Shown here piece by piece: positions 6,546-23,300 of a stretch of DNA of 34,729 nt. The stretch comes from Chloroflexota bacterium (GTDB taxonomy: Bacteria > Chloroflexota > Dehalococcoidia > SZUA-161 > JAUWZY01), in the NCBI GenBank assembly GCA_030615045.1, contig JAUWZY010000001.1, positions 1 to 34,729 on the forward strand, written 5' to 3'. Under the pieces are notes generated by a model. The model saw only the letters and a program-made list of their open reading frames with translations. It was not told the DNA's origin and did not search any database. Made by a program: the position numbers and the translations under genes. Every line of letters begins with the position of its first letter. The first letter of the stretch is position 1.

Positions 6546-7355
6546 CTATAGCGGCAAGGTGAAGGAACACTTGCTTCCCTTCCCTTCCTCGCTTTCCATC
6601 CAGATGCGGCCACCATGTGCTTGCACCAGCCCCTTGGAGATGGACAGCCCCAGTCCTAAACCTTCCTCTTGGGGCAGCCTTTTCTCAATCCGATACATCC
6701 AATCAAACACTCTCTCCAGGTCCCCAGCAGGTATGCCTATTCCCTGGTCAGCGACGCTGATATGCAACTCCGAGCCCCCCCGGTGTGCCTGTACCACCAC
6801 GCTGCTTCCCTCTTTGGAATACTTGCAGGCGTTGTCGATCAGGTTATCCAGTACCTGCCTAATGCGCTTAGCATCAATGTTCACCCTCGGTAATCCCTTC
6901 CTCATGTTCAACACTATCTGGTGCCTGGGTGCCGTCAACTTAGCCTCAGCCACCGCCTCTCGGATCAGTTTTGAGATGCTGATGGGCTGTTTTTCCAGCT
7001 TCAGCAGCCCTGCATTAAGCTGGGACATATCTAGCAGATGGTCTACAAGCTCGGTGAGCCTATCAGTTGCTCTGTCTATGGATTGCAGGTGCTCCTGTTT
7101 CTCCTCACACCTCAGCCTCCGGTCGTAGTCCAGCAGCATGGTAGTATACCCCTTGATGGCTGCCAGTGGAGTGCGCAACTCGTGCGAAACTGTGGAAAGG
7201 AGATCGCTCTTAAGCCTGTCTAGCTCCTCGTATTCAACCACTTTCCTCTCAAGCTGCTGGCGCTCGGCTTCTACCTTTTCCAATTCAGCAATTCGTTGGC
7301 ATAGTTCTGCCAATTCATTTGTGATCCGCTTTTTTGTCTTAGCTTCGTCTTTCAC
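6546..7355 (-). CDS. cytoplasmic histidine kinase lacking a recognisable sensor domain (coiled coil + HisKA + HATPase_c)
   Basis: The H-box is STVSHELRTPLAAIKGY. The N, G1 and G2 blocks are VLDNLIDNACKY, VADQGIGIP and GLGLGLSISKGLVQAHGG. The first ~50 aa form a charged heptad-like helix (ELAELCQRIAELEKVEAERQQLERKVVEYEELDRLK). There are no TM segments. The start is GTG at 7355. Confidence 0.9.
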   Translation of the reverse strand: MKDEAKTKKRITNELAELCQRIAELEKVEAERQQLERKVVEYEELDRLKSDLLSTVSHELRTPLAAIKGYTTMLLDYDRRLRCEEKQEHLQSIDRATDRLTELVDHLLDMSQLNAGLLKLEKQPISISKLIREAVAEAKLTAPRHQIVLNMRKGLPRVNIDAKRIRQVLDNLIDNACKYSKEGSSVVVQAHRGGSELHISVADQGIGIPAGDLERVFDWMYRIEKRLPQEEGLGLGLSISKGLVQAHGGRIWMESEEGKGSKCSFTLPL

Positions 7356-7487: not shown

Positions 7488-7586
7488 TTGCTTCGCCTTC
7501 GGCAGCCCGGCTGTCATAGATTGCTAACCCTTAGACCCGAGGCTTTGCGTCACCGCCTTTCAGCGGTTTTGCCCTTTCGGTGCGTA
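7488..7586 (-). promoter_or_regulatory. c-di-GMP-I (GEMM-I) riboswitch aptamer, copy 2
   Basis: The minus-sense RNA is CGCACCGAAAGGGCAAAACCGCUGAAAGGCGGUGACGCAAAGCCUCGGGUCUAAGGGUUAGCAAUCUAUGACAGCCGGGCUGCCGAAGGCG. It shows the same conserved blocks as copy 1: GGGCAAAACC, a GAAA-capped hairpin CCGCU-GAAA-GGCGG, GACGCAAAGCC and GGGUCUAAGG...CUAUGAC. Stem sequences co-vary between the two copies. Confidence 0.85.
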
Positions 7587-7657: not shown

Positions 7658-7863
7658 CCCGGGCCGGCGTTCCTGCATTTACTCACGTTCGGAAGCACCC
7701 CTTCCTCCTCCTTCCAGGGGAGGCGGCGCTATGACCACCTCCAATTTTATCTCCGCCATGGACTGACTTTGCCAAGTGCGAAGCATTTGACCAAACCGGG
7801 TGAGGCGCAAGCCCGCGTTAGATGAAGTCACAGCTTATTTTTGGGGCAAGGAAACCACTTCGA

Positions 7864-8298
7864 TTATTTCTCAGCTCTTTCCGGGAAAAGTCTTCTGAAC
7901 TCTTTATACATACACCTGTCTTGAATAAAGACGATGCCCATCTCCTCAGCGAGTTCTCGGGCTTCTTCATTTTCAATACCTTCCTGAAGCCAGATCACCG
8001 CTATATCCCCTCTCTCTTTCTTCCTTGCCAGGGCGTCTTTAACGACATCGACCACATCAGCGGAAGGGCGGAAAACCTCTACGATGTCAATTCTTTCCTC
8101 GATTTCCTTCAGACCGGGATAGCTTTTTCGACCGATAATCTTATCCGCATAGGGATTTACAGGAATGATGTTGTAGCCCTTTGATAGCAGATAGGCAGGC
8201 ACCGAGTGAGCAGGTTCCTCGGGATTCCTAGACATCCCGTATACAGCAATATTTCGATATTTTTGAAAGATTTCCCGAATGAGCTCATCTTTTGCCAT
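7864..8298 (-). CDS. CoA-binding domain protein (YccU/YneT-like)
   Basis: MAKDELIREIFQKYRNIAVYGMSRNPEEPAHSVPAYLLSKGYNIIPVNPYADKIIGRKSYPGLKEIEERIDIVEVFRP is the classic CoA_binding_2 layout. The track ORF extends to a TTG at 8364, but the family N-terminus matches the ATG at 8298. Confidence 0.8.
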   Translation of the reverse strand: MAKDELIREIFQKYRNIAVYGMSRNPEEPAHSVPAYLLSKGYNIIPVNPYADKIIGRKSYPGLKEIEERIDIVEVFRPSADVVDVVKDALARKKERGDIAVIWLQEGIENEEARELAEEMGIVFIQDRCMYKEFRRLFPERAEK

Positions 8299-8399
8299 AA
8301 TCTGAACCCCATGCCTTCTGGCATGGCTACCTGCCGCCGTTTTGCCCGACAGCGGTACAGACAAACTTTGACTTCGCCCGATCCGCTATTGCAGGTGGA

Positions 8400-8428
8400 A
8401 TTGTAGCATCTACTACAATGACCGTCAA
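8400..8428 (-). promoter_or_regulatory. candidate promoter for the CoA-binding protein gene
   Basis: The minus sense reads TTGACG (8428-8423), a 17-nt spacer, then TACAAT (8405-8400). Confidence 0.5.
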
Positions 8429-8531
8429 ACGCAGTGCGCTGGGCTGACGATCAATCACGGGCATGGAAACTCTCGGCGGAAATTTCTATCTTCCGGGCTG
8501 CGATTTTCATCAAGAATCTTCCACTTACCTC

Positions 8532-8561
8532 TTGACAGGCCCGCTTGCCATTGGCTATAAT
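8532..8561 (+). promoter_or_regulatory. candidate promoter for hisF
   Basis: TTGACA (8532-8537), an 18-nt spacer, then TATAAT (8556-8561). Confidence 0.6.
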
Positions 8562-8615
8562 AGCAAACGGCAACCTATTGCCATTAGGTGGCAATTTTTT
8601 CAGGAGGTCTGTTAT

Positions 8616-9386
8616 ATGGAAAAGGTGAGGATCATACCTTGTTTAGATGTAAAGGACGGCAGGGTAGTCAAAGGAATAAGGTTTGTCGACCTGAGGGACG
8701 CAGCTGACCCTGTAGAGGCAGCGGCTGCCTACTGCCAGCAGGGCGCTGACGAGCTGGTTTTCTTGGATATCGCCGCCACCGTGGAAGGGCGAGGAACCAG
8801 GATCGAATGGGTAAAAAGGGTGCGCGAGGTGGCTACCATCCCCTTTGCTGTAGGAGGTGGGATCAGAGATATTGGCGATATGAAAGCCCTGTTCGACATA
8901 GGCTGCGATAAGATATCGATTAACACTGCCGCTGTGAGGAATCCCAACCTGATCAAACAGGCGGTCGAGCAATTCGGCGGGGAACGAATTGTGGTTGCTA
9001 TCGATGGGAGGAAGAACCCGGTCGGCGGCGGTCTGCCCAGGCTGGAGGTCGTGGTCAAAAGTGGTGAAGAGGCCACAGGGATGGATATCGTCGCCTGGGC
9101 GAGGAAGGCAGAGGAACTGGGGGCAGGCGAGATCCTGCTCACCAGCAAGGATGCCGATGGCACAAAGGAGGGCTATGACCTGGAGATGACCAAGGCAGTA
9201 GCGGAAGCAGTTAGCATCCCGATTATCGCCTCCGGGGGAGCAGGGAGGCTGGAGCACCTCTATGAAGCTGTCGTTTTGGGCAAAGCATCTGCCGTCCTTG
9301 CTGCCTCTGTTTTCCACTTCGGGGAGATCTCCATCCCTCAAGCAAAAAGATACCTGAAGGAGAAGGGGATACCAGTGACAACTTAG
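8616..9386 (+). CDS. hisF: imidazole glycerol phosphate synthase cyclase subunit HisF
   Basis: MEKVRIIPCLDVKDGRVVKGIRFVDLRDAADPVE...DELVFLDI...IPFAVGGGIR...ISINTAAV...VVAIDG...GAGEILLTSKDADGTKEGYDL...IPIIASGGAG is the canonical HisF barrel. ATG at 8616 lies 8 nt after CAGGAGG. The track ORF start at 8463 is an upstream extension. Confidence 0.9.
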   Translation: MEKVRIIPCLDVKDGRVVKGIRFVDLRDAADPVEAAAAYCQQGADELVFLDIAATVEGRGTRIEWVKRVREVATIPFAVGGGIRDIGDMKALFDIGCDKISINTAAVRNPNLIKQAVEQFGGERIVVAIDGRKNPVGGGLPRLEVVVKSGEEATGMDIVAWARKAEELGAGEILLTSKDADGTKEGYDLEMTKAVAEAVSIPIIASGGAGRLEHLYEAVVLGKASAVLAASVFHFGEISIPQAKRYLKEKGIPVTT

Positions 9387-9389
9387 GCC

Positions 9390-10397
9390 ATGGGGATAGA
9401 GATGATAGGATATGAACGATACGAAGTGGAGAGAAAAGTAATAGCAATCCTCAAGATACTAAGCGAGTCCCGCGAGCCTCTGGGAGCTAAGGTGATTGCC
9501 CAGCGACTGAAGGATTACGGCGTTGACCTTCGGGAGAGAGCAGTAAGGTACCACCTAAAGATCACGGACGAAAGGGGTCTCACCCAGCTCATAGGAAGAG
9601 ACGGGAGGTTGATCACTGAGTCAGGGATAGAAGAGCTGAAGAGTGCTCTGGTTGGTGACAAGGTTGGCTTTGTTATCAGCAAGATCGAGCTGCTGGCCTT
9701 CCAGACCTCCTTCGACTGGAAAACGCGCAGCGGTCATGTCCCGGTCAATGTTTCCCTTTTCCCCAAAGAACAATTCGACAAGGCTCGCAAGGCAATGAGC
9801 GATGCTTTCAAAGCAGGAATCTGTGTCAGCGATTCAGTAGCTATAGCTCGTGAAGGGGAAAGGTTAGCCGGAGTAACCGTGCCTGAAGGTAAGATCGGCT
9901 TTGCCACCGTATGTAGCATCATAATCAACGGGGCTCTGCTTAAAGCAGGCATCCCCATGGATTCGAAATTCGGTGGCCTGCTCCAAATAAGGAATGAGAA
10001 ACCTTTGCGATTTGTCGAACTCATCGAGTATGCCGGCTCTTCGCTCGATCCCTCGCAGGTATTCATCACCAGTAGAATGACCAGTGTAGGGGAAGCAGCC
10101 AGAAAAGGCGAAGGGAAGGTAGTGGCCAACTTTCGGCAGATACCGGCTTTATGCAGGCCTGTTGCCGAAAAAGTGGTCTCCGCATTAAGAGAAGCCGGGC
10201 TTGGCGGGCTGCTTATGATGGGAGACACAAGCCAGTCGGTGTGCGAAATCCCGGTGGAATTGAATAAGGTGGGCATTATACTCTTGGGCGGCCTCAACCC
10301 AGTGGCTGCCGCTGTAGAAGTCGGCATAGATGTGGAAAACAGGGCTATGAGCGGCGTCCTGGATTACCGGGACCTGGTAGGCTTCTGGCAGCTATAA
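9390..10397 (+). CDS. NrpR-like regulator (N-terminal winged helix + DUF128/NRD domain)
   Basis: ERKVIAILKILSESREPLGAKVIAQRLKDYGVDLRERAVRYHLKITDERGLTQLIGRDGRLITESGIEEL is the wHTH arrangement I recall for NrpR/COG1693 repressors of nif and glnA. One DUF128-like domain follows (VGFVISKIELLAFQTSFD...). This is a recollection-based family call. Confidence 0.65.
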   Translation: MGIEMIGYERYEVERKVIAILKILSESREPLGAKVIAQRLKDYGVDLRERAVRYHLKITDERGLTQLIGRDGRLITESGIEELKSALVGDKVGFVISKIELLAFQTSFDWKTRSGHVPVNVSLFPKEQFDKARKAMSDAFKAGICVSDSVAIAREGERLAGVTVPEGKIGFATVCSIIINGALLKAGIPMDSKFGGLLQIRNEKPLRFVELIEYAGSSLDPSQVFITSRMTSVGEAARKGEGKVVANFRQIPALCRPVAEKVVSALREAGLGGLLMMGDTSQSVCEIPVELNKVGIILLGGLNPVAAAVEVGIDVENRAMSGVLDYRDLVGFWQL

Positions 10398-10418
10398 AAG
10401 GATATAAGGAGGTGACCG

Positions 10419-11987
10419 ATGTCTTTGAGCAAGCCAAATACAAGTGCGGCAACGGTAACCACAACCAGGGTAGCGCCCTCGCCTACCTCTGGGCTATGCG
10501 TCACCTGTGTAGACGGCTGCCCAGGCTATTGCGAGGTGGGCAGGTCTGCTCTTCGAGGAAGGGAGATTATCTATCCTCAGCCCTTCGGGCAGGTCATCGC
10601 CGGGGCGGAGAAGGACTATCCCGTCGATTTCTCTCACTTCAATATCCAGGGAACCTGTGTGGGGGCAGTTGGCATCGAGGCAGACCCGGATAAAGCCGTC
10701 TTTCCTGCTGTCGATCTCTCGACCGAGATCGGCGCCACGGGGAGGAAGATCAGAATGAAGGTCCCCCTCTTCACCGGAACTCTGGGCTCGACTGAAATAG
10801 CCAGGGTGAATTGGGAAGGCACCGCTATCGGCGTAGCCATATGTGGAGCCGTGCTCGTCTGCGGGGAGAATGTCTGTGCCATGGATCCCAACGCCGAGTT
10901 TGAACAGGGAAGGGTTGTGAGATCCCCCGAGCTCGAAAGAAGGGTAAAGATATACCAGGACTGGTACCAAGGCTATGGGACAATCATTGTCCAGGCAAAC
11001 GTGGAGGATACTCGCCTCGGTGTCCCCGAATATGCGATAGAGAGACTTGGGGTTGAGGATATCGAAATAAAGTGGGGCCAAGGCGCCAAATCCATCGGTG
11101 GGGAGGTCAAGCTGCCGACCCTGGAGAGGGCCCTGGAACTCAAGCGAAGGGGATACTTGGTTATTCCTGACCCTGAAAATCCTGTAGTTCAAGAGGCTTA
11201 TAAGGTAGGGGGAATAACAGAATTCGAGAGGCACTCCCGCCTGGGAATGGTGGATGAGGATTCTTTCCTGAAGGAGGTGGAGAGGCTGAGGAGACTAGGC
11301 GCCAAGTATGTGACCCTGAAAACTGGAGCCTACCGAGCGCCTGATTTGGCTCGGGCGGTTAAATTCGCCTCCGAAGCCCAAATAGACCTCCTCACTGTGG
11401 ACGGCGCTGGCGGCGGCACGGCAATGAGCCCGTGGCGCATGATGAATGAATGGGGCATCCCCACGGTATACCTGGAAAGCCTACTTTATAGATTCCTCAC
11501 CAGGCTTGAAGCAAAAGGGGCATTTATCCCCAGCTGTGCTATTGCTGGTGGGCTCGCCCTCGAGGACCAGATTTTCAAAGCTATAGCCCTGGGAGCGCCC
11601 TTTGTAAAGGCGGTATGTATGGGGCGGGCGACCCTTACTGCGGCTATGGTGGGAAAGACACAGGGGCAGTTTTTGGAAGAGACCTATGGCCGAGGTAGTA
11701 GAGAGTACCAGGATGCCCTGCTTCGCACCTTCGTCGCAGCAGCACAGCTCAGGGAAGACTATGGAGAAGACTTCGAGAGGATACCGCCAGCGGCAGTAGC
11801 CGTCTATACTTATTACGACAGGCTGGCCACGGGCCTGAGACAACTGATGGCTGGGGCTCGTAAGTTTGCCCTCGATTTCATGGATAGAAATGACCTGATG
11901 GCGCTGACACGAGAGGCGGCGGATGTCTCGGGTATCCCTTATGTGATGGAGGCGGATATGGAGGAGGTGGAGAGGATTTTAGGGTGA
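10419..11987 (+). CDS. glutamate synthase-related FMN-binding protein (GltB domain-2 type, archaeal-like)
   Basis: The N-terminus has a Cys cluster (CVTCVDGCPGYCEVG). A TIM-barrel region follows with IEIKWGQGAKSIGGEVKL..., LLTVDGAGGGTAMSPW and AIAGGL...KAIALGAPFV.., typical of GltS FMN domains. There is a strong SD (AAGGAGGTG) before ATG 10419. Confidence 0.8.
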   Translation: MSLSKPNTSAATVTTTRVAPSPTSGLCVTCVDGCPGYCEVGRSALRGREIIYPQPFGQVIAGAEKDYPVDFSHFNIQGTCVGAVGIEADPDKAVFPAVDLSTEIGATGRKIRMKVPLFTGTLGSTEIARVNWEGTAIGVAICGAVLVCGENVCAMDPNAEFEQGRVVRSPELERRVKIYQDWYQGYGTIIVQANVEDTRLGVPEYAIERLGVEDIEIKWGQGAKSIGGEVKLPTLERALELKRRGYLVIPDPENPVVQEAYKVGGITEFERHSRLGMVDEDSFLKEVERLRRLGAKYVTLKTGAYRAPDLARAVKFASEAQIDLLTVDGAGGGTAMSPWRMMNEWGIPTVYLESLLYRFLTRLEAKGAFIPSCAIAGGLALEDQIFKAIALGAPFVKAVCMGRATLTAAMVGKTQGQFLEETYGRGSREYQDALLRTFVAAAQLREDYGEDFERIPPAAVAVYTYYDRLATGLRQLMAGARKFALDFMDRNDLMALTREAADVSGIPYVMEADMEEVERILG

Positions 11988-11998
11988 AGGAGGGGAAG

Positions 11999-12208
11999 AT
12001 GCTCAGAACTATCTGTTTGCAGAACTGTCCTTGTCCCTTCTGTATCTCAGCATGCCCTTCAGGTGCTCTGGCGGTGAAAGATAATCAGGTTGTGGTGGAA
12101 TCAGACAGGTGCCACGGATGTGGCGTGTGCCGCTATATGTGTATGACCTGGAGCAGAGACCATTCGATGAGGGCGAAGAGCGCAGCCTGGCTTGCAGGAA
12201 GAATGTAA
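11999..12208 (+). CDS. small 4Fe-4S ferredoxin-domain protein
   Basis: CPCPFCISACP and CHGCGVCRYMC are the cluster motifs. ATG 11999 lies 5 nt after AAGGAGG. The track start GTG 11984 overlaps the stop of the upstream gene and is an alternative start. Confidence 0.7.
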   Translation: MLRTICLQNCPCPFCISACPSGALAVKDNQVVVESDRCHGCGVCRYMCMTWSRDHSMRAKSAAWLAGRM

Positions 12209-12606
12209 ACTGTGCCCTAAGATAAACGAGCATTGTGGATGGAACAGGGGTGGCTTTATCTACTGGGCCGCTCCACGGCGAAGTGCCATGGCGCTGAAAT
12301 CACCATGGGCTACGAGGGGATGAGGATAGTCCTTTAAGGAGGTTCGAGTCCGGCCCGGGATGCGGAGTTGGCTCGAATGTGAAATTGCCCTGCCGAGTTG
12401 ATGTAGCGAATTATTAGATTTAGCCCTATCAGGGGCAGCGAACCACAAAAGTAGATTGAATGAGCTATATTTAGGTATAGGAAATGTAACAGTGGTAAAA
12501 GCTGTTGTCATTTAGTAAAATTAGGCAGTAGCTCATATACCTAATGTCGGTACGGTGGTGAACAAGATGACATTACAATCTACTGGGCTGAAGGGAGAGG
12601 AAAGCC

Positions 12607-13791
12607 ATGTTGAGTCATGTGGAAATTAAGAATTACAAGAGTCTCGCTTCCACTGTGGTCAATCTTGATAGTTTCACAGTGCTGGTAGGACCCAACGGGG
12701 CAGGTAAGAGCAACTTTGTAGACGCGCTACGCTTCGTCAACCAATGTCTCGTTTCCTCTATTACTCTGCCAATTCAGGATCGTGGTGGAATCGGTGCTGT
12801 GCGGCGACGCTCCAGGGGTCATCCCAGACATTTTGGCTTTCACTTAGGAATAGAGCTTCCCTCAGGGCTGTTCGCAGATTTCTCCTTTGAGATCGCTGCC
12901 CTGCCTAAAGGAGCCTTCGAGGTCAAACAGGAAAGATGCATCGTGCAATCTGCGCTGGGCAAAAGGGACCAGTATGAAGTAGAGGGCGGGAAGTTCAAGC
13001 GAGGAGTGGAGGGGATTAGGGCCAAGATCGAACCAGATCGTCTGGCCCTAACCGTGGTCTCTGCAGCAGAAGAGTTTCGCCCCGTATACGATTATTTGAG
13101 TGGCATGCGGTTCTATTCGTTGGCGCCAGATAAGATTCGTGAATTACAGGGAGCCGATCCGGGTGAGGTATTGGAGCGTAATGGCAGTAATGCCGCAGCA
13201 GTCCTGAGAGAGATCAGAAAGGAGAAGCCAGATAACTACGACCGACTTTGCCGGCTACTATCAAAGGTCGTTCCTGGCACCAAAAGTGCCGAGTATGTTT
13301 CAGTCGGGCAAAAGGAAACTATCCTCTTCAAACAGGAGGTAGAGGGGGATAGCGCGCTATGGGCCTTCGATTCATTGAGTATGTCAGATGGTACACTTCG
13401 AGTGTTAGGTATACTGCTGGCGGTATATCAGGTGTCACCCCCGACTCTAATCGCAATTGAGGAGCCTGAAGCCACCATTCACCCTGCGGCATTAGATGTG
13501 TTAGTGGATATACTCAAAGACGGCACACATCGAGCACAAATCCTGCTTACCACCCACAGCCCTGACATCTTGGATAATAAAAGCATCAAAGACAGTGAGA
13601 TTCTTGTCGTGGAGTCCATCAAGGGGAAAACCACTATAGCCCCGATGGATGGGAAGTCCCGTGATATGGTGCGTCAGCACCTATACACGGCTGGAGAGCT
13701 ACTCCGTTCCGGAGAATTGGAGCCTGATAGAGAAAAAGCCATGGAGTTGGGGGAGCAACTAAATCTATTTGGTCCAGTAAATTACTCATGA
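12607..13791 (+). CDS. ABC/SMC-like ATPase (AAA_15/AAA_21 type, OLD/PARIS-AriA/Septu-PtuA-like)
   Basis: The N-terminal strand-loop reads VEIKNYKSL...LVGPNGAGKSNFVDAL, with Walker A at nt 12688-12711. An ABC-signature-like LSMSDGTLRVLG, Walker B/D-loop LIAIEEPEATIHP and H-loop LLTTHSPDIL follow. SD GGGAGAGGAAAG precedes the ATG. Confidence 0.85.
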   Translation: MLSHVEIKNYKSLASTVVNLDSFTVLVGPNGAGKSNFVDALRFVNQCLVSSITLPIQDRGGIGAVRRRSRGHPRHFGFHLGIELPSGLFADFSFEIAALPKGAFEVKQERCIVQSALGKRDQYEVEGGKFKRGVEGIRAKIEPDRLALTVVSAAEEFRPVYDYLSGMRFYSLAPDKIRELQGADPGEVLERNGSNAAAVLREIRKEKPDNYDRLCRLLSKVVPGTKSAEYVSVGQKETILFKQEVEGDSALWAFDSLSMSDGTLRVLGILLAVYQVSPPTLIAIEEPEATIHPAALDVLVDILKDGTHRAQILLTTHSPDILDNKSIKDSEILVVESIKGKTTIAPMDGKSRDMVRQHLYTAGELLRSGELEPDREKAMELGEQLNLFGPVNYS

Positions 13792-14381
13792 CAGATTCAA
13801 TTGTGCCAATTGTCGAGGGACAGTCTGAGGTGGATTCAGTGCCGGTGCTAATGCGTCGCCTCCGAGACGAGTGGGGCAAATACCAACTGGAAATTGGAAA
13901 ACCGGTTCGGGTCAAACGCTACCAAGTCATTAAGGAGGGCGAGTTGGAAAGACGAGTTATGATGGCAATGCAACGCCCAAACTGTCGGGCTGTCATAGTA
14001 ATCCTCGATGCGGACGATGATTGTCCAAAGGATTTTGCGCCGAAGTTGTTAGAGCGGGCCAAACAAGCAGCACAAAATACACTTGTATCGGTTGTCTTGC
14101 CGAAGTCGGAGATGGAATCTTGGTTTGTGGGCAGCATCGAATCTCTGCGTGGCGTGTGTGGTATCTTAGACACAGCGTGTTCACCATCCGATCCTGAAGC
14201 CATACGCGATGCGAAGGGATTTCTAACTAGAGCGATGGAGGGGAGTCACCACTACCTTGAGGTAGATGACCAGCCTGCCTTTGCAGAGAAATTTGATCTA
14301 ACCCAGGCTCTTAGCAATTGTCGTTCGTTTAAGAAATTCTATAATGATTTCCGCAGAATCGTATGCTTGCTCACTCCATAG
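13788..14381 (+). CDS. small Toprim-like protein resembling the DUF4276 family
   Basis: The start overlaps the ATPase stop (ATGA). IVEGQSE (Glu codon at 13815-13817), VIVILDADDDCP (14007-14021) and KSEMESWF give the E...DxD acidic pattern of Toprim folds, in the order I recall for DUF4276. This is a family call from memory. Confidence 0.7.
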   Translation: MTDSIVPIVEGQSEVDSVPVLMRRLRDEWGKYQLEIGKPVRVKRYQVIKEGELERRVMMAMQRPNCRAVIVILDADDDCPKDFAPKLLERAKQAAQNTLVSVVLPKSEMESWFVGSIESLRGVCGILDTACSPSDPEAIRDAKGFLTRAMEGSHHYLEVDDQPAFAEKFDLTQALSNCRSFKKFYNDFRRIVCLLTP

Positions 14382-14482
14382 TGGTGGAACGCTTAAGCGG
14401 ATTCCCCTTCGCTTTGACAAGGTGGATTTCACCCTATCCCACAAGAGCGCGCTTTGTGCCGTTGGCTCGGGGAGCCAATCCA

Positions 14483-16756
14483 CTACTGGCTCAAAAGCCC
14501 CTCAAGTATCATCTGGGCTGCTTTTTTGTCCAGGGGCTCGTTGTTGTTGCCGCACTTAGGCGACTGAATGCAGCTGGGGCAGCCCTCCTCACAGGGGCAT
14601 TCCAAGAGCACTCTCAGCGTCTCCTGCCAAAGCCTGCCGATAAGCTCGAAGCCTTTCTCCACGATGCCGACTCCTCCCGGATAGGCATCATAGATGAAAA
14701 CCTCGGCTTTCCCGGTATCGGGGTGCAATGGGGTGGAAACGCCGCCAATATCGTTTCTATCGCAGAGGGCAAATAGCGGCAGCATGGCAATCGTGGCATG
14801 CTCTACGGCATGGAGCCCGCCAGCAAGGTCCAGCCCAGCCTGTGCCAGCTGAGTCTCAACCGGAGGCGGGATATTGAACCAGAGCGCCACCGTATTGAAG
14901 GATTGCGCGGGCAGGTCCAGGGGCTCCTCTGCGATAACCTCCTCGGTGAACACCCGCTTCTTCCTGAAGCCAATTACCCTGTTGGTCACTTCCACCTCTC
15001 CCAGATGAACCCGGCCTTGGCCAAAGGCCTTCTCTTGGCTTACCTTTAGCATCCTGAGGTCGGTGACGTCCTTGGCTTGGGTATAGTAGGTGGCGTCCGT
15101 GGGCCGGCAATAGGCGGTGTGAGCTATAAGGTCTAACTCGGTGACCAGATAGGACTCACCTTGATGGATATAGATAGCGCCGGGGTGAATTTGAGACAAA
15201 GCAACTGCCGATCCCACCGTCTCCAAGAGACAACCTGTGCTGACATCAACCAAGCCATAGCTCTCAGCTGAGGTGGTGCGAATATTTATATCCTGTGCCG
15301 GATAGATAACGCTTGGCGCTGGATACCACCGAGGGTTACGATGGCGCAAAAAGCCCTCTCCTTCCAGTTCCGCCATTGCCTGCTCCAGGTCGCCGGCAAA
15401 GAATTCCTGGTCGCCGTCGGTCAACGGCAGCTCCCAGGAGGCGCAGAGGAGATGGGGCTTGAGGATATATTGATTTCTGGGGTCGATCAAAGCATGCTCA
15501 TAGCTCTTGGCGAAGAAGACCTCGGGGTGGCGCATAAAATATTGGTCTAAGGGGCTATCCAAACCAATGAGAAAGCTCAACGAGTCCTCCCTCCCCCGGC
15601 CACTCCTCCCCGCCTGCTGCCAGGTGCTGGCGATGCTCCCCGGATATCCAGAGAGCACGGTGGCATCGAGGTCGCCAATATCAATCCCCAGCTCCAAGGC
15701 GGTGGTGGCCACCGCAGCCAAAAGCCGACCCTCAAAGAGCTCGCGCTCGATCTGGCGCCGTTCCTCGGGGAGATAGCCAGCACGATAGGGCTTTACCCGC
15801 TCCCCAAGATCTGGACTCTCGGCGAGTTGCTCCCGCATATAGAGATAGATGAGCTCGGTGAGGCGTCGCGTCCTGGCGAAAGCCAGGCTCCTGATCCCAT
15901 TACGCATCAACTCGGTTAATAGCAGGGTGGTTTCGCTGTTGGCGCTGCGCCGAACGGACTTGGCTTCATCGATAAGCGGCGGATTCCAAAAGACAAAGTC
16001 CTTCCCGCCGTGGGGGGAACCGTCCTCGGTGATGGGCTGAAACGGGACGCCGCATAGCCTCTCGGCATGCTCTTTGGGATTGGCGATAGTGGCCGAGCAG
16101 CAAATGAATCGGGGCTGGCTGCCATAGTGCGCGCAAAGGCGCTTCAGGCGGCGCAGCACATTGGCGACATGAGAGCCGAAAACGCCACGATACACATGGG
16201 CCTCGTCAATGACTACGTACTTCAGCTGAGTTAGCAGTCGCCACCAAGAGCGATGATTGGGCAGGATGCCGAGATGAACCATGTCTGGATTTGAGAGCAC
16301 GATGTTTGCTGACCTCTTTATCTCGGAGCGCTGCCAGCTTGGCGTATCGCCATCGAAGGTGGCATGCTTTACCCCGAGCCCAGAGGTCAGCTCTTTTAGG
16401 CTTCGCAGTTGGTCTTGAGCTAAAGCTTTGGTTGGGAACAGATAGAGGGCTCGGCTCCCCTTATCCGTCAGCATGGCATTCAGCACCACCAGGTTGTAGC
16501 AAAGCGTTTTGCCACTGGCGGCAGGGGTAGCAATGACGACATTCTCCCCAGAGCGAGCAGCATTTATGGCCGCCGCTTGATGGCGATAAAGGGGGAGCAG
16601 ATGGAACCTGTCAAGGATAGACTCAAGTGCCGGGTGAAGCGGCTGGGCTAACTGGCCATAGCTGGCTTCGCTTGAGGTTAAATGCTCATGATGGACGATT
16701 TGGTCTCGATAGGAGGGAAGGCTTCTCAGGTGATCGAGGAAAGCTGAGGTGTTCAT
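14483..16756 (-). CDS. DEAD/DEAH-box helicase with C-terminal DUF1998 zinc module (MrfA/YprA-like)
   Basis: Motif I is ATPAASGKTLCY, motif II VVIDEAHVYRG, motif III CCSAT and motif VI QQAGRSGRG. The C-terminal four-Cys module is CPCEEGCPSCIQSPKCGNNNEPLDK. Confidence 0.9.
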   Translation of the reverse strand: MNTSAFLDHLRSLPSYRDQIVHHEHLTSSEASYGQLAQPLHPALESILDRFHLLPLYRHQAAAINAARSGENVVIATPAASGKTLCYNLVVLNAMLTDKGSRALYLFPTKALAQDQLRSLKELTSGLGVKHATFDGDTPSWQRSEIKRSANIVLSNPDMVHLGILPNHRSWWRLLTQLKYVVIDEAHVYRGVFGSHVANVLRRLKRLCAHYGSQPRFICCSATIANPKEHAERLCGVPFQPITEDGSPHGGKDFVFWNPPLIDEAKSVRRSANSETTLLLTELMRNGIRSLAFARTRRLTELIYLYMREQLAESPDLGERVKPYRAGYLPEERRQIERELFEGRLLAAVATTALELGIDIGDLDATVLSGYPGSIASTWQQAGRSGRGREDSLSFLIGLDSPLDQYFMRHPEVFFAKSYEHALIDPRNQYILKPHLLCASWELPLTDGDQEFFAGDLEQAMAELEGEGFLRHRNPRWYPAPSVIYPAQDINIRTTSAESYGLVDVSTGCLLETVGSAVALSQIHPGAIYIHQGESYLVTELDLIAHTAYCRPTDATYYTQAKDVTDLRMLKVSQEKAFGQGRVHLGEVEVTNRVIGFRKKRVFTEEVIAEEPLDLPAQSFNTVALWFNIPPPVETQLAQAGLDLAGGLHAVEHATIAMLPLFALCDRNDIGGVSTPLHPDTGKAEVFIYDAYPGGVGIVEKGFELIGRLWQETLRVLLECPCEEGCPSCIQSPKCGNNNEPLDKKAAQMILEGLLSQ

Positions 16757-17046
16757 AAGGCATTCAGGAATTCGACCTCATAGTCTAAGATCTCGGCGTC
16801 GCCTCGGATGCTGCTGATAAACTCCGCCACCTTGGAGAGGATCTGGTCGGCGTGGCGCCTGTCAGTGCTTAGACAAACAATACCCAAGGTAGCCAACTGC
16901 CAGAGGTCTTGATCCTCAACCTCGGCGATGGAGACATTAAATCTGTTCCCGACCTGGGTGGTGATAGATTTCAGCACCCTTCGCTTGCCCTTCAGGGAAT
17001 CATTCTCGGGTAAACGAAGCCTTACCTTTAGGACACCGATACTCAT
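16753..17046 (-). CDS. DUF503 (YlxP-like) protein
   Basis: GVLKVRLRLPENDSLKGKRRVLKSITTQVGNRFNVSIAEVEDQDLWQLATLGIVCLSTDRRHADQILSKV matches the DUF503 pattern as I recall it. Its stop overlaps the helicase start (ATGA at 16753-16756). Confidence 0.8.
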   Translation of the reverse strand: MSIGVLKVRLRLPENDSLKGKRRVLKSITTQVGNRFNVSIAEVEDQDLWQLATLGIVCLSTDRRHADQILSKVAEFISSIRGDAEILDYEVEFLNAL

Positions 17047-17085
17047 CTGACCCCAAAAGGGCTCAAGGTGCTAACCGGCAGAACG

Positions 17086-17382
17086 CTATTCGCCCTCAGT
17101 TCTCATCTTGGCGAAGCAATCGCTGCAATAAACCGGCCGGTCCCCTCTGGGTTGAAATGGGACCTCGCACTCCTTGCCGCAGTTAGCGCAGACCGCGGGA
17201 TACATCTCGCGGCGCGATCCTGAGTAGCTAAAGCGAGATTGCCTCCTGGTAGCACGACAGTTTGGGCAGCGGCTGGGCTCATTCCTCAGCCCGCGCGATT
17301 GGTAGAATTCCTGCTCACCGGCGGTGAACTCGAACTCCGCTCCGCAGTCACGGCAGATCAAGGTCTTGTCCGCAAATGCCAT
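17086..17382 (-). CDS. double zinc-ribbon protein (zf-trcl-like + CxxC-x17-CxxC)
   Basis: The sequence is CRDCGAEFEFTAGEQEFYQSRGLRNEPSRCPNCR followed by CANCGKECEVPFQPRGDRPVYCSDCF. ATG 17382 lies 7 nt after AAGGAGG. The track ORF start at 17424 is a GTG extension. Confidence 0.75.
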   Translation of the reverse strand: MAFADKTLICRDCGAEFEFTAGEQEFYQSRGLRNEPSRCPNCRATRRQSRFSYSGSRREMYPAVCANCGKECEVPFQPRGDRPVYCSDCFAKMRTEGE

Positions 17383-17563
17383 TGCCGATCCTCCTTCTGA
17401 TCCGTTTGGCCACCTCTTCTTCACTGCTGCTTGCGGCTCAAGACCTTGGTTGAGGCCTCTGGCGCCAGGAGGGAAGCTGGAAAGGATTTCCCAAGCAAAC
17501 CACCTTGTTCAAGGCGCGAACTACTAAAGACAGCACTGAATTGGGTAGCGCATTAATACTATA

Positions 17564-17592
17564 GTATACAGCACCAGCAACAAAAGCGCAAC
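17564..17592 (-). promoter_or_regulatory. weak candidate promoter for the zinc-ribbon/DUF503/helicase genes
   Basis: The minus sense reads TTGCGC (17592-17587), a 17-nt spacer, then TATACT (17569-17564). This would leave a leader of about 175 nt. Confidence 0.35.
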
Positions 17593-17616
17593 AATAACTT
17601 ATTCTCGATCTCTTTT

Positions 17617-20256
17617 CTATGTTAGCTCTGCCAGTCGCTGTTGCAATCTGCTGAGCTTATCCCAATGTTTACTTAACTTCTCTTGTTCCCTGGCGATGAC
17701 ATGGGCTGGGGCCTTAGTCAGGAACTCGCCCTGGCCCAGCTTCCTCTCAAGGCGGGCGATCTCAGCGTGACTCTCCTCGATTTCCCTGGCCAAGCGTTCC
17801 CTTTCCGCTTCGATGTCGATCATCCCGGCCAGGGGCAGGAAGACCTCAGCCCGTTTAAGTACCAATATCTTGGCTTTATCCGGTCTCGGCCTTTCTTCAT
17901 CGGCTCCGAAAATGGTCAACGGCCGCGCCCGGGCCAGGGTGCCGATGGCCGGAGCTAACGCTTCCACAGCAGGCTTATTATCGGCGATGATGATAGCCTC
18001 GATGAATCTCGAGGGCTCGACCTTGGCCTCAACCCGGGCGTTTCTGATACTGCGTATCAGCTCCTGAACCAGCTCCATTTCCTCCTCAGCCTCAGGGTCA
18101 AAGGCCGTTTCATCGACACTGGGATAGGGAGCGATGGTGATCGATTCCACGCTCTGGGGCAGATACCGGGCCAGCCTTTGCCAGAGCTCCTCGGTGATAA
18201 AGGGCATGAAGGGATGGAGAAGGCGCAAAGATGTCTCCAGCACATGAACCAAGACGGGGACCGGCGATAACCCCTCTCGACTGAGGCGGACCTTTGCCAG
18301 CTCGATATACCAATCACAATACTCGCTCCAAATAAAATCGTGGATCTGGCTCAAGGCCTCGCCAAGCATGAAGTTCTGCAGAAGTCGGCTTACATTGGCG
18401 ATGAGCCGGTTGAGTCGGCTCAGGATCCAGCGGTCTTCAGCGGGCAGGGGATATGGTGGCGCTTTCGCCCCCCCATCCAAGTTGCTGATGACGAATTGGG
18501 CAGTGTTCCAAAGCTTATTGGCGAAGTTACGACCGCCTTCCAGCTTTTGCGGCATCAGCCTGATATCATTCCCCGGGGCATTTCCGGCAGTTAGGGCGAA
18601 GCGCAGGGCATCAGTGCCATAAACATTCATCACATCCGCGGGGTCAATCACGTTCCCCCGGGTCTTGCTCATCTTCTCCCCCTTCTCATCCCGAATGAGC
18701 CCGTGGAGATAGACCTTGTGGAACGGGACCTCTCCGGTGTTCTCCAATCCCATCATGACCATCCTGGCCACCCAGAAGAACAGGATGTCATATCCTGTTT
18801 CCATCACCGACGTGGGGTAAAAGTATGCCAGGTCCTCTGTTTGCTCCGGCCAGCCCAGGGTGGAGTGAGGCCAAAGCGCTGAGCTGAACCAGGTATCGAG
18901 GACATCGGGGTCTTGAACGATATCTGTTGAGCCACAGTGAGCACAGCTCTCCGGATCGTCCACAGCGACGGTGAGCCCGCCGCAGTGCTGGCAATGCCAC
19001 GCTGGGATGCGATGCCCCCACCAGAGCTGGCGGCTAATGCACCAATCGCGGATGTTTTCCAGCCAGTTAAGGTAAACCTTGGTGAAGCGCTCGGGCACGA
19101 TCTCGACGCTGCCATCTAAAACAGCCTTTATCGCCCTCTCGGCGAGCGGCGCCACCTCGACAAACCACTGCTTAGAGACCAAGGGCTCGACCACAGTGCG
19201 GCACCGATGGCAATGGCCCACAGCATGAGCATAGGGCTCGATCTTCTCTAAAAGCCCCTCTTTATTCAGGTCGGCAAGCAAAGCCTCACGGCAGGCGAAG
19301 CGATCCAGCCCGGCATAGGGACCGGCATTCTGATTCATAGTGGCATCCAAATTCATTATGTTGATCAAAGGCAAGCCCTGCCTCTGTGCGATCTCGAAGT
19401 CCACCGGGTCATGCCCTGGGGTGATCTTCACCACCCCGGTGCCGAACGCGGGATCGACTAGCCCATCGCTGATCACGGGAATGGCACGCCCCAGAATGGG
19501 AAGGAGCACCTTTCTCCCGAGCAAAACCTGAAATCGCTCATCATCGGGGTTGACCGCAACTGCGGTATCGCCGAGGAGGGTTTCAGGACGAGTGGTAGCT
19601 ACGGTGACGACCCCATCCCCTGTTTGCAGTGGGTAATGGATATAGTAAAGATGGCCTCGAATCTCCGCGTGCTCAACCTCAAGGTCAGAAAGGGCGGTGG
19701 CGCAGCGGGGGCACCAATTAATGAGCCGCTCGCTGCGATAGATCAAGCCTCTTTGGTATAACTTGACAAAGGTGACGCGCACAGCGCGACTGGGCCCGGG
19801 ATCCAAAGTGAAACGCTCCCGAGACCAGTCGCAGGAGGCACCAAGCTTTCGGTGCTGCTGGGCAATGATGTCGCGATATTTACCGGTCCACTGCCACATC
19901 TGCTCCAAGAACCTCTCCCGCCCCAGGTCATGGCGGGAGAGCCCCCGGGCAGCCAAAGCTTGCTCCACCGTGTTCTGCGCTGCGATTCCGGCGTGGTCGA
20001 CCCCAGGGAGCCACAAAGCGGCCTCGCCCTCCATTCGGTGCCAGCGAATCAAGATATCCTCCAAGGTTGCGGTAAGAGCATGCCCGAGATGAAGCTCGCC
20101 GGTGATATTGGGCGGCGGCATAATGATGACGAAGGGCTTCTTATCGGGGTCGATCTCGGGGGTGAAGTAACTCCGTTCCAGCCAGAATCGATACCACTTG
20201 TCCTCTACTTGCTTTGGGTCATAAGCTTTGGGGATTTCACCCAGCTTTGGCCCCAT
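17617..20256 (-). CDS. valS: valine--tRNA ligase
   Basis: It has the class I HIGH motif (PPPNITGELHLGHAL), KMSKS (KMSKTRGN), an editing-domain block and a C-terminal coiled coil, at 879 aa. Confidence 0.97.
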   Translation of the reverse strand: MGPKLGEIPKAYDPKQVEDKWYRFWLERSYFTPEIDPDKKPFVIIMPPPNITGELHLGHALTATLEDILIRWHRMEGEAALWLPGVDHAGIAAQNTVEQALAARGLSRHDLGRERFLEQMWQWTGKYRDIIAQQHRKLGASCDWSRERFTLDPGPSRAVRVTFVKLYQRGLIYRSERLINWCPRCATALSDLEVEHAEIRGHLYYIHYPLQTGDGVVTVATTRPETLLGDTAVAVNPDDERFQVLLGRKVLLPILGRAIPVISDGLVDPAFGTGVVKITPGHDPVDFEIAQRQGLPLINIMNLDATMNQNAGPYAGLDRFACREALLADLNKEGLLEKIEPYAHAVGHCHRCRTVVEPLVSKQWFVEVAPLAERAIKAVLDGSVEIVPERFTKVYLNWLENIRDWCISRQLWWGHRIPAWHCQHCGGLTVAVDDPESCAHCGSTDIVQDPDVLDTWFSSALWPHSTLGWPEQTEDLAYFYPTSVMETGYDILFFWVARMVMMGLENTGEVPFHKVYLHGLIRDEKGEKMSKTRGNVIDPADVMNVYGTDALRFALTAGNAPGNDIRLMPQKLEGGRNFANKLWNTAQFVISNLDGGAKAPPYPLPAEDRWILSRLNRLIANVSRLLQNFMLGEALSQIHDFIWSEYCDWYIELAKVRLSREGLSPVPVLVHVLETSLRLLHPFMPFITEELWQRLARYLPQSVESITIAPYPSVDETAFDPEAEEEMELVQELIRSIRNARVEAKVEPSRFIEAIIIADNKPAVEALAPAIGTLARARPLTIFGADEERPRPDKAKILVLKRAEVFLPLAGMIDIEAERERLAREIEESHAEIARLERKLGQGEFLTKAPAHVIAREQEKLSKHWDKLSRLQQRLAELT

Positions 20257-20303
20257 GGCTATCCCTTCCGTGGATATGAGAGAGGGTCGGCTGTGAAGCT
20301 GGC

Positions 20304-23300
20304 TCAGTCCTCAACAGGCTTTGCTGGCTCGAGAGCAGGGGGCTCTTCCTCAGCGGCAAGATGGCAGCGGGCAGGGATCAGCTTGCCGATGATAACATTC
20401 TCCTTAAGCCCAAATAGCTTATCGACGCTTCCGGTCACCGCAGCTTCAGTGAGCACCCTGGTTGTCTCTTGGAACGAGGCTGCTGCCAGAAAACTATCAG
20501 TGTTCAGCGAGGCTCTGGTTATGCCCAAAAGGGCGGGATGAGCTGTCGCTGGCTCGCCTCCCTCAACCAACACCTTGGCATTGAGATCCTCATAATCGAA
20601 ACTATCGATCAGCTCCCCGGGCAGGAGTTCAGTATCGCCTGTAGAATCGATGCGCACCTTACACAGCATCTGGTGGACGATGGTCTCGATATGCTTGTCG
20701 TGGATGTTAACCCCCTGGGAGCGATAGACCTTTTGCACCTCGTCCACTAAGTATCGCTGCACCGCCTCCCGACCCATGATGCGCAGGATCTCCTGTGGAT
20801 TAAGCGGGCCCTCGCTGAGTTGCTCCCCCGCTTTGACCTCAGTCCCATTCTCCACCAGGAGGGCTGCCATGGGGGATGCCAGGTATTCCCGCTCTTCCTT
20901 CTCTTCATACAAGATCGAAACCTGGCTATCCTTAATCTCCACCTTACCTCCGATCCTGGCCAGGATAGGAGGCGAACTGGCTGCAGTTGGCTCAGCCAGA
21001 ATAGCAGTGGCATCGACCCATTGCTCATCGCCAACTACTATTTGATACCCCTGGGGTAAGGGATAATCATCGCGGTAGACCCCGGAGCTTACGATCTTAA
21101 TCCTCTTCCCCTCCCTTGTTTCCGTTACCTCCACCACCCCATCGATCTCAGAGACGATGCCCTGCCCCTTGGGGATCCGGGCTTCAAAGAGCTCCTCAAC
21201 CCAAGGCAGCCCACTGGTGATATCCACCCCAGCCACGCCACCGGTATGGAAGGTGCGTATGGTCAGCTGAGTCCCGGGCTCACCAATGCTCTGGGCAGCG
21301 ATGACATCCACTGCCTCCCCTACAGCGATCAATTGCCTTCGTGCCAGGTCTCGACCATAGCATAGACGACACACGCCGCGCCGCGACTGACAGCTTAATG
21401 GAGACCTTACATAAACATCAGTGATGCCAGCGTGGGCGATCTGCTGCGCTTTATCTTCGTCGATCTCCTCGTTTCGATTCACGATTACCTTGCCACTTTG
21501 AGGGTCAACTACTGGGCTCGCCGCAAGCCGACCTACTATACGCTCAGGGAGGGAAAGCAACAGGCTTTTATCCCTTGGTTCTGAGACCCAGATGCCGCCC
21601 ATGGTGCCACAGTCCTCCTCCCGGATGATGACCTCCTGAGTCACATCGACGAGACGCCTGGTGAGGTAGCCGCTATCCGATGTCCTCAGGGCGGTATCAG
21701 CCAGCCCTTTCCTGGCGCCATGGGTGGAGATGAAGTACTCCAATACCGAAAGCCCCTCTCTGAAATTGGACCTGATGGGCAGGTCGATGATCCTGCCCGA
21801 GGGGTCGCTCATTAAGCCACGCATCCCGGCCATTTGCCTGATCTGGGCGATGTTTCCTTTAGCATCGGAGTAGGCCATTATGTATACCGGGCCATAAGGG
21901 TCAAGCGACTGCTCGAGGCTGCTGGAAAGCTCCTCAGTGGCCTTGGTCCAAACGGCCACCGTGCTCTGATAGCGCTCGTCATCAGTGATCAGACCTCGCT
22001 GGAATTGCTTCCCCACCTCGGCTAATCTCTCCTCGGCCTGTTCCAACAGCCGGGCCTTACTATGGGGCACCTCCAGGTCGCAAAGCGCCATGGTAATACC
22101 TGACTTGGTGGCATAGTGGTAGCCCAGGCTCTTGATTTCATCCAGTACCGAAGCTGTGACTTCGCTGCCGAAACGGGAATGACACTCAGCGACAATCTGT
22201 TTCAATATCTTCTTATCCATTAGCTGGTTGCGGAAGCCGAGCTCCTTGGGCAGAACCTCGTTGAAGATAATGCGGCCAACGCTGGTCTTGAGGTATTTGC
22301 CACTTTCTTCATCCCGGACCTCGATCTCAGCTCCAATCTCGATGAGGCCTAAATAGTAGGCCAACTTGGCATCAGCGAAATCGGAGAATATCCTCCCCTC
22401 GCCCTTGGCTCCCGCTTTGATCACGGTCAGGTAGTAGCAGCCAAGGATGATGTCCAGTGTTGGGGTCACCACGGGCTCGCCCGAGCTGGGCAGGAGCATA
22501 TTTTTGGTGCTGAGCATCACCTGCTTTGCTTCCTCCACAGCTGCCTTGGACAGGGGGAGATGAACCGCCATCTGATCGCCATCGAAGTCAGCATTAAAGG
22601 CAGCGCAGACTAAGGGATGAACCTGAATGGCGGCGCCATCGATGAGCACCGGGTAGAAAGCCTGGAGGCTGAGTCGATGCAATGTTGGCGCTCGGTTGAG
22701 CAGGACGGGGTGATCTTTTACCAGCTCCTCCAGGATATCCCAGACCTCTGGTTTGCCCCGCTCCACAATTCTCTTGGCGCTCCTGATGTTATGCGCCAGA
22801 CCCCGAGCCACCAGACGGCGCATGATGAAAGGTTTGAACAGCTCCAGAGCCATGCGCTTAGGCAGCCCACATTGATGCAGCTTGAGCTCGGGGCCGACCA
22901 CGATCACGGAACGGCCGCTATAGTCCACCCTCTTGCCCAGGAGGTTCTGCCGAAAGCGGCCTTGTTTCCCTCTGAGCATATCGGAAAGCGACTTTAGCTT
23001 GTGACCGCTGCTGGTGGCTATGGGGCGACCGCGTCGCTCGTTATCAATGAGGGAGTCGACGGCTTCTTGAAGCATGCGCTTCTCGTTGCGAATGATGACC
23101 TCCGGGGCTCCCAGCTCCAGGAGCCGACGCAGGCGATTATTGCGATTGATCACCCGCCGATAGAGGTCGTTAAGGTCGCTGGTGGCAAATCGCCCGCCGT
23201 CGAGCTGAACCATGGGACGTAACTCCGGCGGTAACACAGGAAGCACGGTGAGGATCATCCATTCCGGCTTGTTCCCGCTCTTGCGCAGAGCCTCAACGAC

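Follow-up and report, generated by a model that had tools for sequence, protein, structure and literature searches.

Pairs in which an ABC ATPase accompanies a Toprim protein recur in bacterial immunity, as in OLD, Gabija, PARIS and MADS. The locus described here, a two-gene cassette in the genome of a Chloroflexota bacterium, raises the question of whether such a pair, standing by itself among housekeeping genes, belongs with these systems or represents a kind of its own. The cassette lies in a stretch of 34,729 nucleotides (assembly GCA_030615045.1, contig JAUWZY010000001.1, positions 1 to 34,729), referred to below as the window, and consists of gene 1, which encodes an ABC ATPase, and gene 2, which encodes a small protein of the DUF4276 family (Table 1). 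An earlier interpretation made from the letters of this DNA (the sequence-only reading) had proposed the pair as a candidate defence system in which ATPase and Toprim nuclease are split into two polypeptides, resembling PARIS with a different, much smaller partner, and had known of no experimental characterization of this pairing.

We found that the parts had been correctly identified and that their novelty had been overrated, since the pair belongs to a known candidate system, HEC-01 (Hma-embedded candidate 01; PADLOC-DB v2; Payne et al.), which by definition joins an ABC ATPase to a TOPRIM protein and was found inside Hma (helicase-methylase-ATPase) systems (10.1101/2024.01.29.577857). The locus shows no new kind of system. 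What is new here is that this copy has recently taken the place of a transporter operon, that the pair stands alone and is kept by selection without a methylation partner, and that it moves as a block of ~2.2 kb with its own leader. We consider it reasonably probable that the cassette is a self-contained, horizontally acquired HEC-01-type module in which an ATPase regulates a Toprim-like nuclease, probably directed against phage or other incoming DNA.

Family membership of the two proteins

The assignment of both proteins to their families is near certain and, with family matches at E values from 1e-14 to 1e-131, the pair is not a product of chance. Gene 1 matches AAA_21 in Pfam across the whole profile (5.5e-30), along with AAA_15 and SMC_N, and in PADLOC it is identified as HEC-01A (PDLC04178, E 3.8e-131, residues 2-388 of the protein on positions 9-394 of 399 in the profile). 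Gene 2 matches DUF4276 (PF14103; 54.2 bits versus a gathering score of 30.2, E 2.9e-14, covering positions 1-190 of 192) and HEC-01B (PDLC04196, E 2.6e-60, 1-192 on 1-192 of 197), so that the two genes are the two parts of HEC-01; nothing was matched by gene 2 in NCBIfam, nor was any PHROG family. The PADLOC matches of gene 1 to AriA, Old, GajA, AbiLi, NsnB and mad3 were much weaker or partial relative to HEC-01A; for example, the AriA match (PDLC02980) reached 9.1e-30 over residues 216-323 only, and those to Old and GajA were limited to short segments or the ends of the ATPase. The best NCBIfam match of gene 1 was MAD3, at 129.4 bits, for which the cut-off is 420.

The two open reading frames (ORFs), their ATGA overlap and all of the motifs quoted in the sequence-only reading are present in the translations and at the coordinates it gave, and the database matches bear out its DUF4276 assignment. 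Its description of gene 1 as an SMC/RecF-like ABC ATPase likewise agrees with the Pfam families and with the AlphaFold (AF2) model of this protein, which has a mean predicted local distance difference test score (pLDDT) of 90.2 and is nearest to PtuA (of Septu and retrons) and to SMC heads (Foldseek E ~1e-14). The ABC ATPase encoded by gene 1 is compact and lacks a coiled coil, and the residues of its Walker A motif, Q-loop, signature, Walker B/D-loop and H-loop are invariant in 35 homologues.

The DUF4276 protein and its candidate Toprim metal site

The sequence-only reading expected gene 2 to carry a Toprim metal site built from E10 and D74/D76. These residues proved to be conserved and rightly placed. 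In the AlphaFold (AF2) model (pLDDT 93.4; predicted template modelling score 0.89), E10 directly follows strand 4-9, D74-x-D76 follows strand 66-72 and E108/E110 follow strand 99-103, and the alignments and the model together contain both of the Toprim hallmarks, a Glu that is conserved behind strand 1 and a DxD that follows strand 3. Among 34 gene 2 homologues with 51-85% identity, no variation occurs at E10, D74, D77, E108, E110, W112 or F113, and conservation at E14, D76, D78 and K143 is complete or at least 90%. The 129 cluster representatives with 32-65% identity all have G11 and D74, and conservation among them reaches at least 90% at E10, E108, E110, W112 and K143. An exhaustive profile search returned 3,277 gene 2 clusters (50% identity) at E <= 1e-3, and nearly all of the best 150 are stand-alone proteins of ~190-210 amino acids (aa).

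As modelled, gene 2 has the layout of an OLD C-terminal catalytic region, with a Toprim-like core (~1-105) followed by a helical region (110-195); the catalytic region of BpOLD comprises a 115-aa Toprim domain and a 90-aa helical domain (PMC6755086). The catalytic residues of BpOLD are E400/E404, D455/D457, T506/E508 and K562 (PMC6755086), and the gene 2 set of E10/E14, D74/D76, E108/E110 and K143 matches these in order and in local spacings, which suggests a putative residue-by-residue mapping of the one protein onto the other. The top fold match of gene 2 in the PDB is the C-terminal region of an OLD protein (6njv; E 3.7e-3, probability 0.98, template modelling (TM) score 0.43), and both this structure and a second OLD C-terminal region (6nk8, TM 0.45) aligned along the entire length. 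In the viral library the top fold match is a full-length RloB-like protein (E 1.2e-3, probability 1.00, TM 0.51). The sole "significant" profile match in the PDB, a designed repeat protein, aligns to the DDD stretch of gene 2 and was rejected as an artefact.

An obligate pair

When 185,579 genomes of species representatives were scanned with a sequence pattern, 388 (~0.2%), spread over many phyla, had a relative. A gene 1 homologue lies directly upstream of gene 2 and on the same strand in 78 of the 80 genome loci kept; at 33 of these 78 junctions there is a 4-nt NTGA overlap, and 73 of them fall within -10 to +22 nt. When genome and metagenome loci are pooled and those with a full gene 1 plus enough downstream room are considered (134 loci), gene 2 adjoins gene 1 in 129 (96%), while in the remaining five gene 2 is split (three loci) or there is none (two). 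The identities of gene 1 and gene 2 homologues to the window copies are correlated (r = 0.88, n = 123). Relative to the closest relatives, the ratio of nonsynonymous to synonymous substitution rates (dN/dS) is 0.09-0.27 for both genes, which indicates purifying selection on each. The pairing is therefore obligate, and the two genes have diverged together, under purifying selection and with their motifs intact. In the window, the ATGA overlap implies translational coupling of gene 2 to gene 1, as judged from the sequence; upstream of the gene 2 start there is no sequence resembling a Shine-Dalgarno (SD) site.

Decayed copies were also encountered. At locus L018 (8643-10001; our locus handles begin with L) only 39 N-terminal ATPase codons are left, 1.2 kb upstream of gene 2, and at L036 (4775-5146) there is just a C-terminal fragment of gene 2, while in the metagenomic loci L105, L141 and L161 the gene 2 match is split in a frameshift-like manner. 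Among phages, a DUF4276 relative occurs in a single record, MT835995.1, an unannotated human-gut bacteriophage contig, in which the match (22301-22852, 33% identity, E 1e-17) is close to the contig end.

Acquisition by replacement of a transporter operon

The sequence-only reading had placed the pair in a lower-GC segment of ~2.2 kb, and this segment was recovered both by composition, with a GC content of 0.498 over positions 12209-14482 compared to 0.546 for the window mean and 0.56-0.57 for the flanking genes, and independently by comparison with a close relative. That relative, L088, is a 283-kb metagenomic contig with 94-96% DNA identity to window positions 7860-12288 and 14499-26753. Between these positions homology is lost: the window has 2,210 bp (12288 to 14499) where L088 carries ABC_tran and ABC2_membrane genes (1,475 bp). 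L171 and L172 have the same ABC transporter after the helicase, which brings to three the number of close relatives with a transporter at this position; a fourth related contig ends before the slot and is uninformative as to transporter or cassette.

Traces of two former genes remain at the left end of the block. The first, the last codons of an ABC-2 permease that align with the end of the L088 gene, lies at the left junction and shows that the transporter was ancestral and was replaced by the cassette. The second, the end of a metallo-beta-lactamase (MBL)-fold hydrolase gene, matches L089, the closest relative with the pair (ATPase 91% identical), where the ORF preceding the pair ends in AEITLGCEGLRLRV and a stop codon and has a weak Lactamase_B_2 match. 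The position of this relic 5' of the pair indicates that the block came from a donor with an arrangement of the L089 type. On the right, the convergent helicase gene has its end at 14483-14485 and departs from the relative in no more than the final two codons (LLSQ versus LLQR before the stop), which, by alignment, places the right junction inside these codons or just past them.

The pair was acquired recently and took the place of the transporter operon at a core-genome position that is otherwise conserved. There is no integrase or transposase, and the flanking repeats amount to 11-13-nt matches, about the chance level, which points to transfer by recombination and not by a dedicated mobile element. 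Since near-identical genomes with and without the cassette fix its exact limits, they are also a guide to what to clone.

A T-arm-like motif, GGTTCGAGTCC, is situated at 12341-12351, right after the hydrolase relic and inside the imported block. The segment that contains it is common to the window and L091 and is deleted in L089. We considered a tRNA or att remnant at this position and rejected it, as ARAGORN called neither a tRNA nor a tmRNA in the window and Rfam gave nothing credible in the leader.

Neighbourhoods in other genomes

The flanking genes of the pair differ in every context examined and are mostly housekeeping genes. A census at 43 loci, which took in the two genes to either side of the pair, gave 141 ORFs with matches to 139 Pfam families, none of which occurs in more than three ORFs. 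Scattered PADLOC matches among these neighbors comprised one Type III methyltransferase, Type IV restriction enzymes, one GmrSD-like HEC-06 and two PDC-S27; "mad3" matches were rejected as ordinary ABC-transporter ATPases. Relatives whose ATPases are 78-88% identical to gene 1 have the pair elsewhere, downstream of a class II tRNA synthetase gene. Within the clade of the window copy, no third gene is conserved and there is no Hma or MADS embedding among the 141 neighbors. The variable neighbourhoods, together with the transporter in the slot of the close relatives, show that the pair is accessory and mobile. The sequence-only reading had counted conservation in core-genome contexts without defence neighbors as a point against itself; such neighbors are indeed few, yet the contexts are variable, not conserved.

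The leader

The "AT-rich 400-bp leader" noted earlier has about the length claimed (398 bp), although its AT-richness is only mild (GC 0.477). It is a composite, consisting of the two gene relics and then a conserved, cassette-borne leader. Window positions 12308-12606 are ~91% identical to L091 and 12378-12597 are ~90% identical to L089, and the core at 12476-12549 is recognizable in the more distant L094, L095 and L097. The Jukes-Cantor distance of the leader is ~0.10, compared to a synonymous distance (dS) of 0.24 in the adjacent genes, which indicates that the leader is under constraint. An SD-like GGAGAGG is situated 8 nt before the gene 1 ATG. The leader has no Rfam family match, a structured RNA was rejected on the basis of a non-significant fold z-score (-1.30), and a sigma-70 scan of the leader gave no site on the + strand. 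The simplest reading of these sequence features is a putative promoter/operator, and the leader probably comprises a promoter plus 5' untranslated region.

Relationship to known ATPase and Toprim systems

HEC-01 itself is the closest system, with the same pair of proteins in the same order, ABC ATPase then small TOPRIM-like protein, and with both hidden Markov models matched over their full length. The difference is one of context, as the window copy and its clade stand alone among housekeeping genes and not within a helicase-methylase-ATPase system. The predicted structure of HEC-01 has been aligned to BpOLD with a conserved metal site (10.1101/2024.01.29.577857).

In the Mad3-Mad4 components of MADS, too, a DUF4276 protein goes together with an ABC ATPase of the AAA_15/21 type. 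DUF4276 and RloB have been placed in the Toprim superfamily, with DUF4276 equated to Mad4 (PMC12065111), and MADS3-4 and AbiL have been listed among ATPase plus TOPRIM systems (PMC11464382). Unlike MADS, for which the Mad6-8 genes are mandatory by definition (10.1101/2023.03.30.534895), the window lacks Mad1, Mad2 and Mad5-8, no methylation self-marking is apparent in it, and gene 1 falls far below the MAD3 cut-off. In MADS, deletion of mad3 or mad4 lowers defence, and a deletion of mad5 is possible only if mad2 or mad3 is removed along with it.

These deletions, along with two studies in which HEC-01 itself was tested, contradict the earlier statement that the pairing was experimentally uncharacterized: it has already been catalogued and partly tested. 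HEC-01 is among the least understood of the ATPase plus Toprim systems and its experimental record is conflicting. A cold-seep study reports that E. coli B was protected by one HEC-01 cluster against one or more of T4, T5 and T7 (10.1101/2024.09.26.614923); the result of the other study is given below.

The OLD proteins (Class 1 P2 Old; Class 2 BpOLD and XccOLD, 6nk8 and 6njv) share with the pair an ABC ATPase, a Toprim-like core and a helical domain, and their C-terminal region, besides being nearest in fold to gene 2 among PDB structures, has a comparable constellation of acidic residues and a lysine. However, OLD Classes 1-3 differ in that the ATPase and nuclease of the window are on separate polypeptides, the TM scores are just 0.43-0.45, and gene 2 has no Toprim match in Pfam, including OLD-like_TOPRIM (PF20469). 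PARIS (AriA and AriB, Class 4 OLD) does have a separate ABC ATPase and Toprim effector, and the likeness noted in the sequence-only reading holds for this split architecture. It does not extend to membership in PARIS, since AriB belongs to DUF4435 and has a mass of 35 kDa, whereas gene 2 encodes a DUF4276 protein of 22 kDa that matches neither DUF4435 nor the AriB models, and since the AriA models cover only part of gene 1 and are far weaker than HEC-01A.

AbiL and RloA-RloB resemble the pair in that their AAA_21 ATPase has a small partner (~200 aa) that is Toprim-like, as also reflected in the RloB-like viral fold match, but gene 2 has no RloB match in Pfam and the window pair has no type I restriction-modification context. 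PtuA of Septu and retrons provides the closest solved structures to gene 1; its partner, PtuB, is an HNH nuclease and not a Toprim-like protein. Gabija requires the fused ATPase-Toprim protein GajA and the UvrD-like helicase GajB, and the pair has neither; the helicase that neighbors the pair is convergent, of the MrfA/Hrq1 type and present also in relatives without the pair.

Proposed function and alternatives

By analogy with the systems above, gene 2 is most likely a metal-dependent nuclease and a role of the pair in defence is likely. Metal A would be bound by E10 and D74/D76 and metal B by E14 and E108/E110, and K143 would aid catalysis. The gene 1 ATPase most likely forms a complex with the gene 2 nuclease, as in OLD, Gabija, PARIS and Septu, and would hold it inactive, or direct it, until a phage or mobile element is sensed, whereupon the released nuclease would cut nucleic acid, either DNA or tRNA. 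PARIS offers a plausible template for such a mechanism (sequestration, release by a trigger and nuclease action), which is one option among others. Going beyond this, we tentatively suggest, as a possibility to which we lean less, that the stand-alone HEC-01 clade is an autonomous immune system of the kind of a "minimal split OLD", in which the whole OLD catalytic region (Toprim and helical domains) would exist as a separate 22-kDa protein under the control of the compact ATPase, with a trigger and target of its own that are distinct from those of PARIS, Gabija and MADS, and with the constrained leader of ~230 bp moving along with the genes and controlling their expression.

Several observations weigh against the interpretation of the pair as a nuclease-based defence module. 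With regard to the fold, no Foldseek match of gene 2 reached E <= 1e-3 in the PDB or the viral library (TM 0.43-0.51), generic alpha/beta folds are interleaved among its PDB matches, and a DUF4276 profile search found no sequence relative of gene 2 in the PDB. A comparison with P2 Old by hhalign was non-significant, at a probability of 0.1% with a shallow profile and 0.7% (E 0.076) with a deeper one, using a single Old sequence because a homologue search with the P2 Old C-terminus gave just five fragments; the deeper alignment, non-significant as it is, pairs VPIVEGQSE of gene 2 with VLLVEGKTE of Old in the correct register. The Toprim proposal of the sequence-only reading is supported by the conserved residues and their placement, but its scores are weak. 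With regard to function, HEC-01 gave no protection to E. coli against the phages tested in its defining study (10.1101/2024.01.29.577857), and the positive report is sparse in detail (10.1101/2024.09.26.614923). The pair occurs in one of 50,697 records of sequenced phages and in three of 72,556 plasmid records, all three of them large Streptomyces replicons. Lastly, an enrichment in defence neighbourhoods, which the sequence-only reading had looked to, was not found: the 141 immediate neighbors give no clear defence-island signal, being mostly housekeeping genes with scattered defence genes.

The lack of a phage phenotype in the defining study could also be accommodated if the pair were a selfish module of the addiction or abortive kind, or a system against plasmids or transformation, that persists by control of toxicity or by a general action on incoming DNA. 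Such a role would suit a tightly coupled pair that moves between genomes, and AAA_21 is the Pfam "putative AbiEii toxin" family, with an AbiLi match of gene 1 in PADLOC at 9.6e-26. We nevertheless regard it as unlikely, as no antitoxin-like or regulator gene accompanies the pair among the 141 neighbors, phage protection was reported in one study, and the related OLD, Gabija and PARIS are phage defences.

An orphaned accessory effector of a methylation-based system, of the Hma or MADS Mad3-Mad4 type, would be expected to be inert without its methyltransferase and partners, and HEC-01 was indeed discovered inside Hma systems and was inactive alone. While MAD3 is the best NCBIfam match of gene 1 and, in MADS, a genetic link connects mad3 with the essentiality of the methyltransferase, the score of 129 bits is remote from the 420-bit cut-off, and a methyltransferase and other MADS or Hma genes are absent from the window and do not recur among the 141 neighbors. 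The retention of the stand-alone pair in 96% of loci, at the low dN/dS values given above, also argues against an inert remnant, and we consider this explanation improbable. A housekeeping nuclease for DNA repair or maintenance (RecF/SbcCD/OLD-like) that works with neighboring repair helicases is highly improbable, for although the ATPase resembles SMC/RecF heads and the pair adjoins an MrfA-type helicase in the window, Lhr and DinB at L005 and RuvC/RuvA at L001, it occurs in no more than ~0.2% of the species representatives, is missing from three close relatives at the same site, has no family in more than three of its 141 neighbors and lies in a block of lower GC than the host genes.

Features of the locus and minor observations

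Table 1. Coordinates of the pair, its motifs and the imported block in the window.
Feature	Position	Strand	Remarks
Whole imported block	12289-14491		~2.2 kb, GC ~0.50; replaces ABC_tran + ABC2_membrane operon of close relatives
ABC-2 permease relic	12256-12288	-	Last 10 codons and stop (WHFAVERPSR, stop); aligns with L088 WRFAVEWPDR, stop
MBL-fold hydrolase relic	12293-12337	+	C-terminal 14 codons and stop (AEITMGYEGMRIVL, stop); matches L089 ORF end
Cassette-borne leader	12378-12606	+	Most conserved core 12476-12549
Gene 1	12607-13791	+	394 aa; ABC ATPase of AAA_21/AAA_15 type (HEC-01A)
Gene 1 Walker A, GPNGAGKS	12688-12711	+	G28-S35
Gene 1 Q-loop			Q181
Gene 1 signature, LSMSDGT			S260-D-G-T263
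Gene 1 Walker B/D-loop, LIAIEEPE			E285-E-P-E288
Gene 1 H-loop, LLTTHSPD			H317
ATGA stop/start overlap of genes 1 and 2	13788-13791	+	
Gene 2	13788-14381	+	197 aa; DUF4276 protein (HEC-01B)
Gene 2 candidate catalytic E10, E14	13815-13817 (E10)		E10 in IVEGQSE
Gene 2 candidate catalytic D74-D78	14007-14021		In ILDADDD
Gene 2 candidate catalytic E108/E110	14109-14117		EMESWF
Gene 2 candidate catalytic K143	14214-14216		
3' spacer and right junction of imported block	14382-14491		From homology comparison with relative

Both flanks of the pair are core genes and have the character that had been described for them, with nitrogen-metabolism genes upstream and a convergent helicase downstream. The upstream genes are HisF-like, NrpR, glutamate-synthase-like and a small Fer4-like ORF, and downstream the DEAD/MZB helicase (MrfA/Hrq1-type) is followed by DUF503, a zinc-finger protein, ValRS, RpoC and RpoB. 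The NrpR repressor family is known mainly from archaea. The member in the window (9390-10397, + strand; NRD1_2 at 2e-86 plus a winged helix) adjoins the glutamate-synthase-like and HisF-like genes. The Fer4-like ORF (74 aa, 11984-12208, + strand) overlaps the stop codon of the glutamate-synthase-like gene and has weak Pfam matches that are below cut-offs; at the corresponding position in L088 only a 38-aa gene was called.

The close relatives differ from the window at other positions as well. L088 has ~3.1 kb of extra sequence (18681-21783), with genes for a PAS sensor and a response regulator, that is missing at window positions 7235-7245. L171 and L172 have a 285-aa gene and a glutamate dehydrogenase gene (17279-19709) where the window (9390-11987) and L088 have the glutamate-synthase-like and NrpR genes, which shows that the nitrogen-metabolism side of the locus also varies between close relatives. 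Finally, the window contains two complete cyclic di-GMP-I riboswitch aptamers (RF01051) on the minus strand, at 3704-3791 and 7498-7583, which scored 80.3 and 86.2 bits, respectively, against a gathering score of 35, and both are situated upstream of minus-strand genes.

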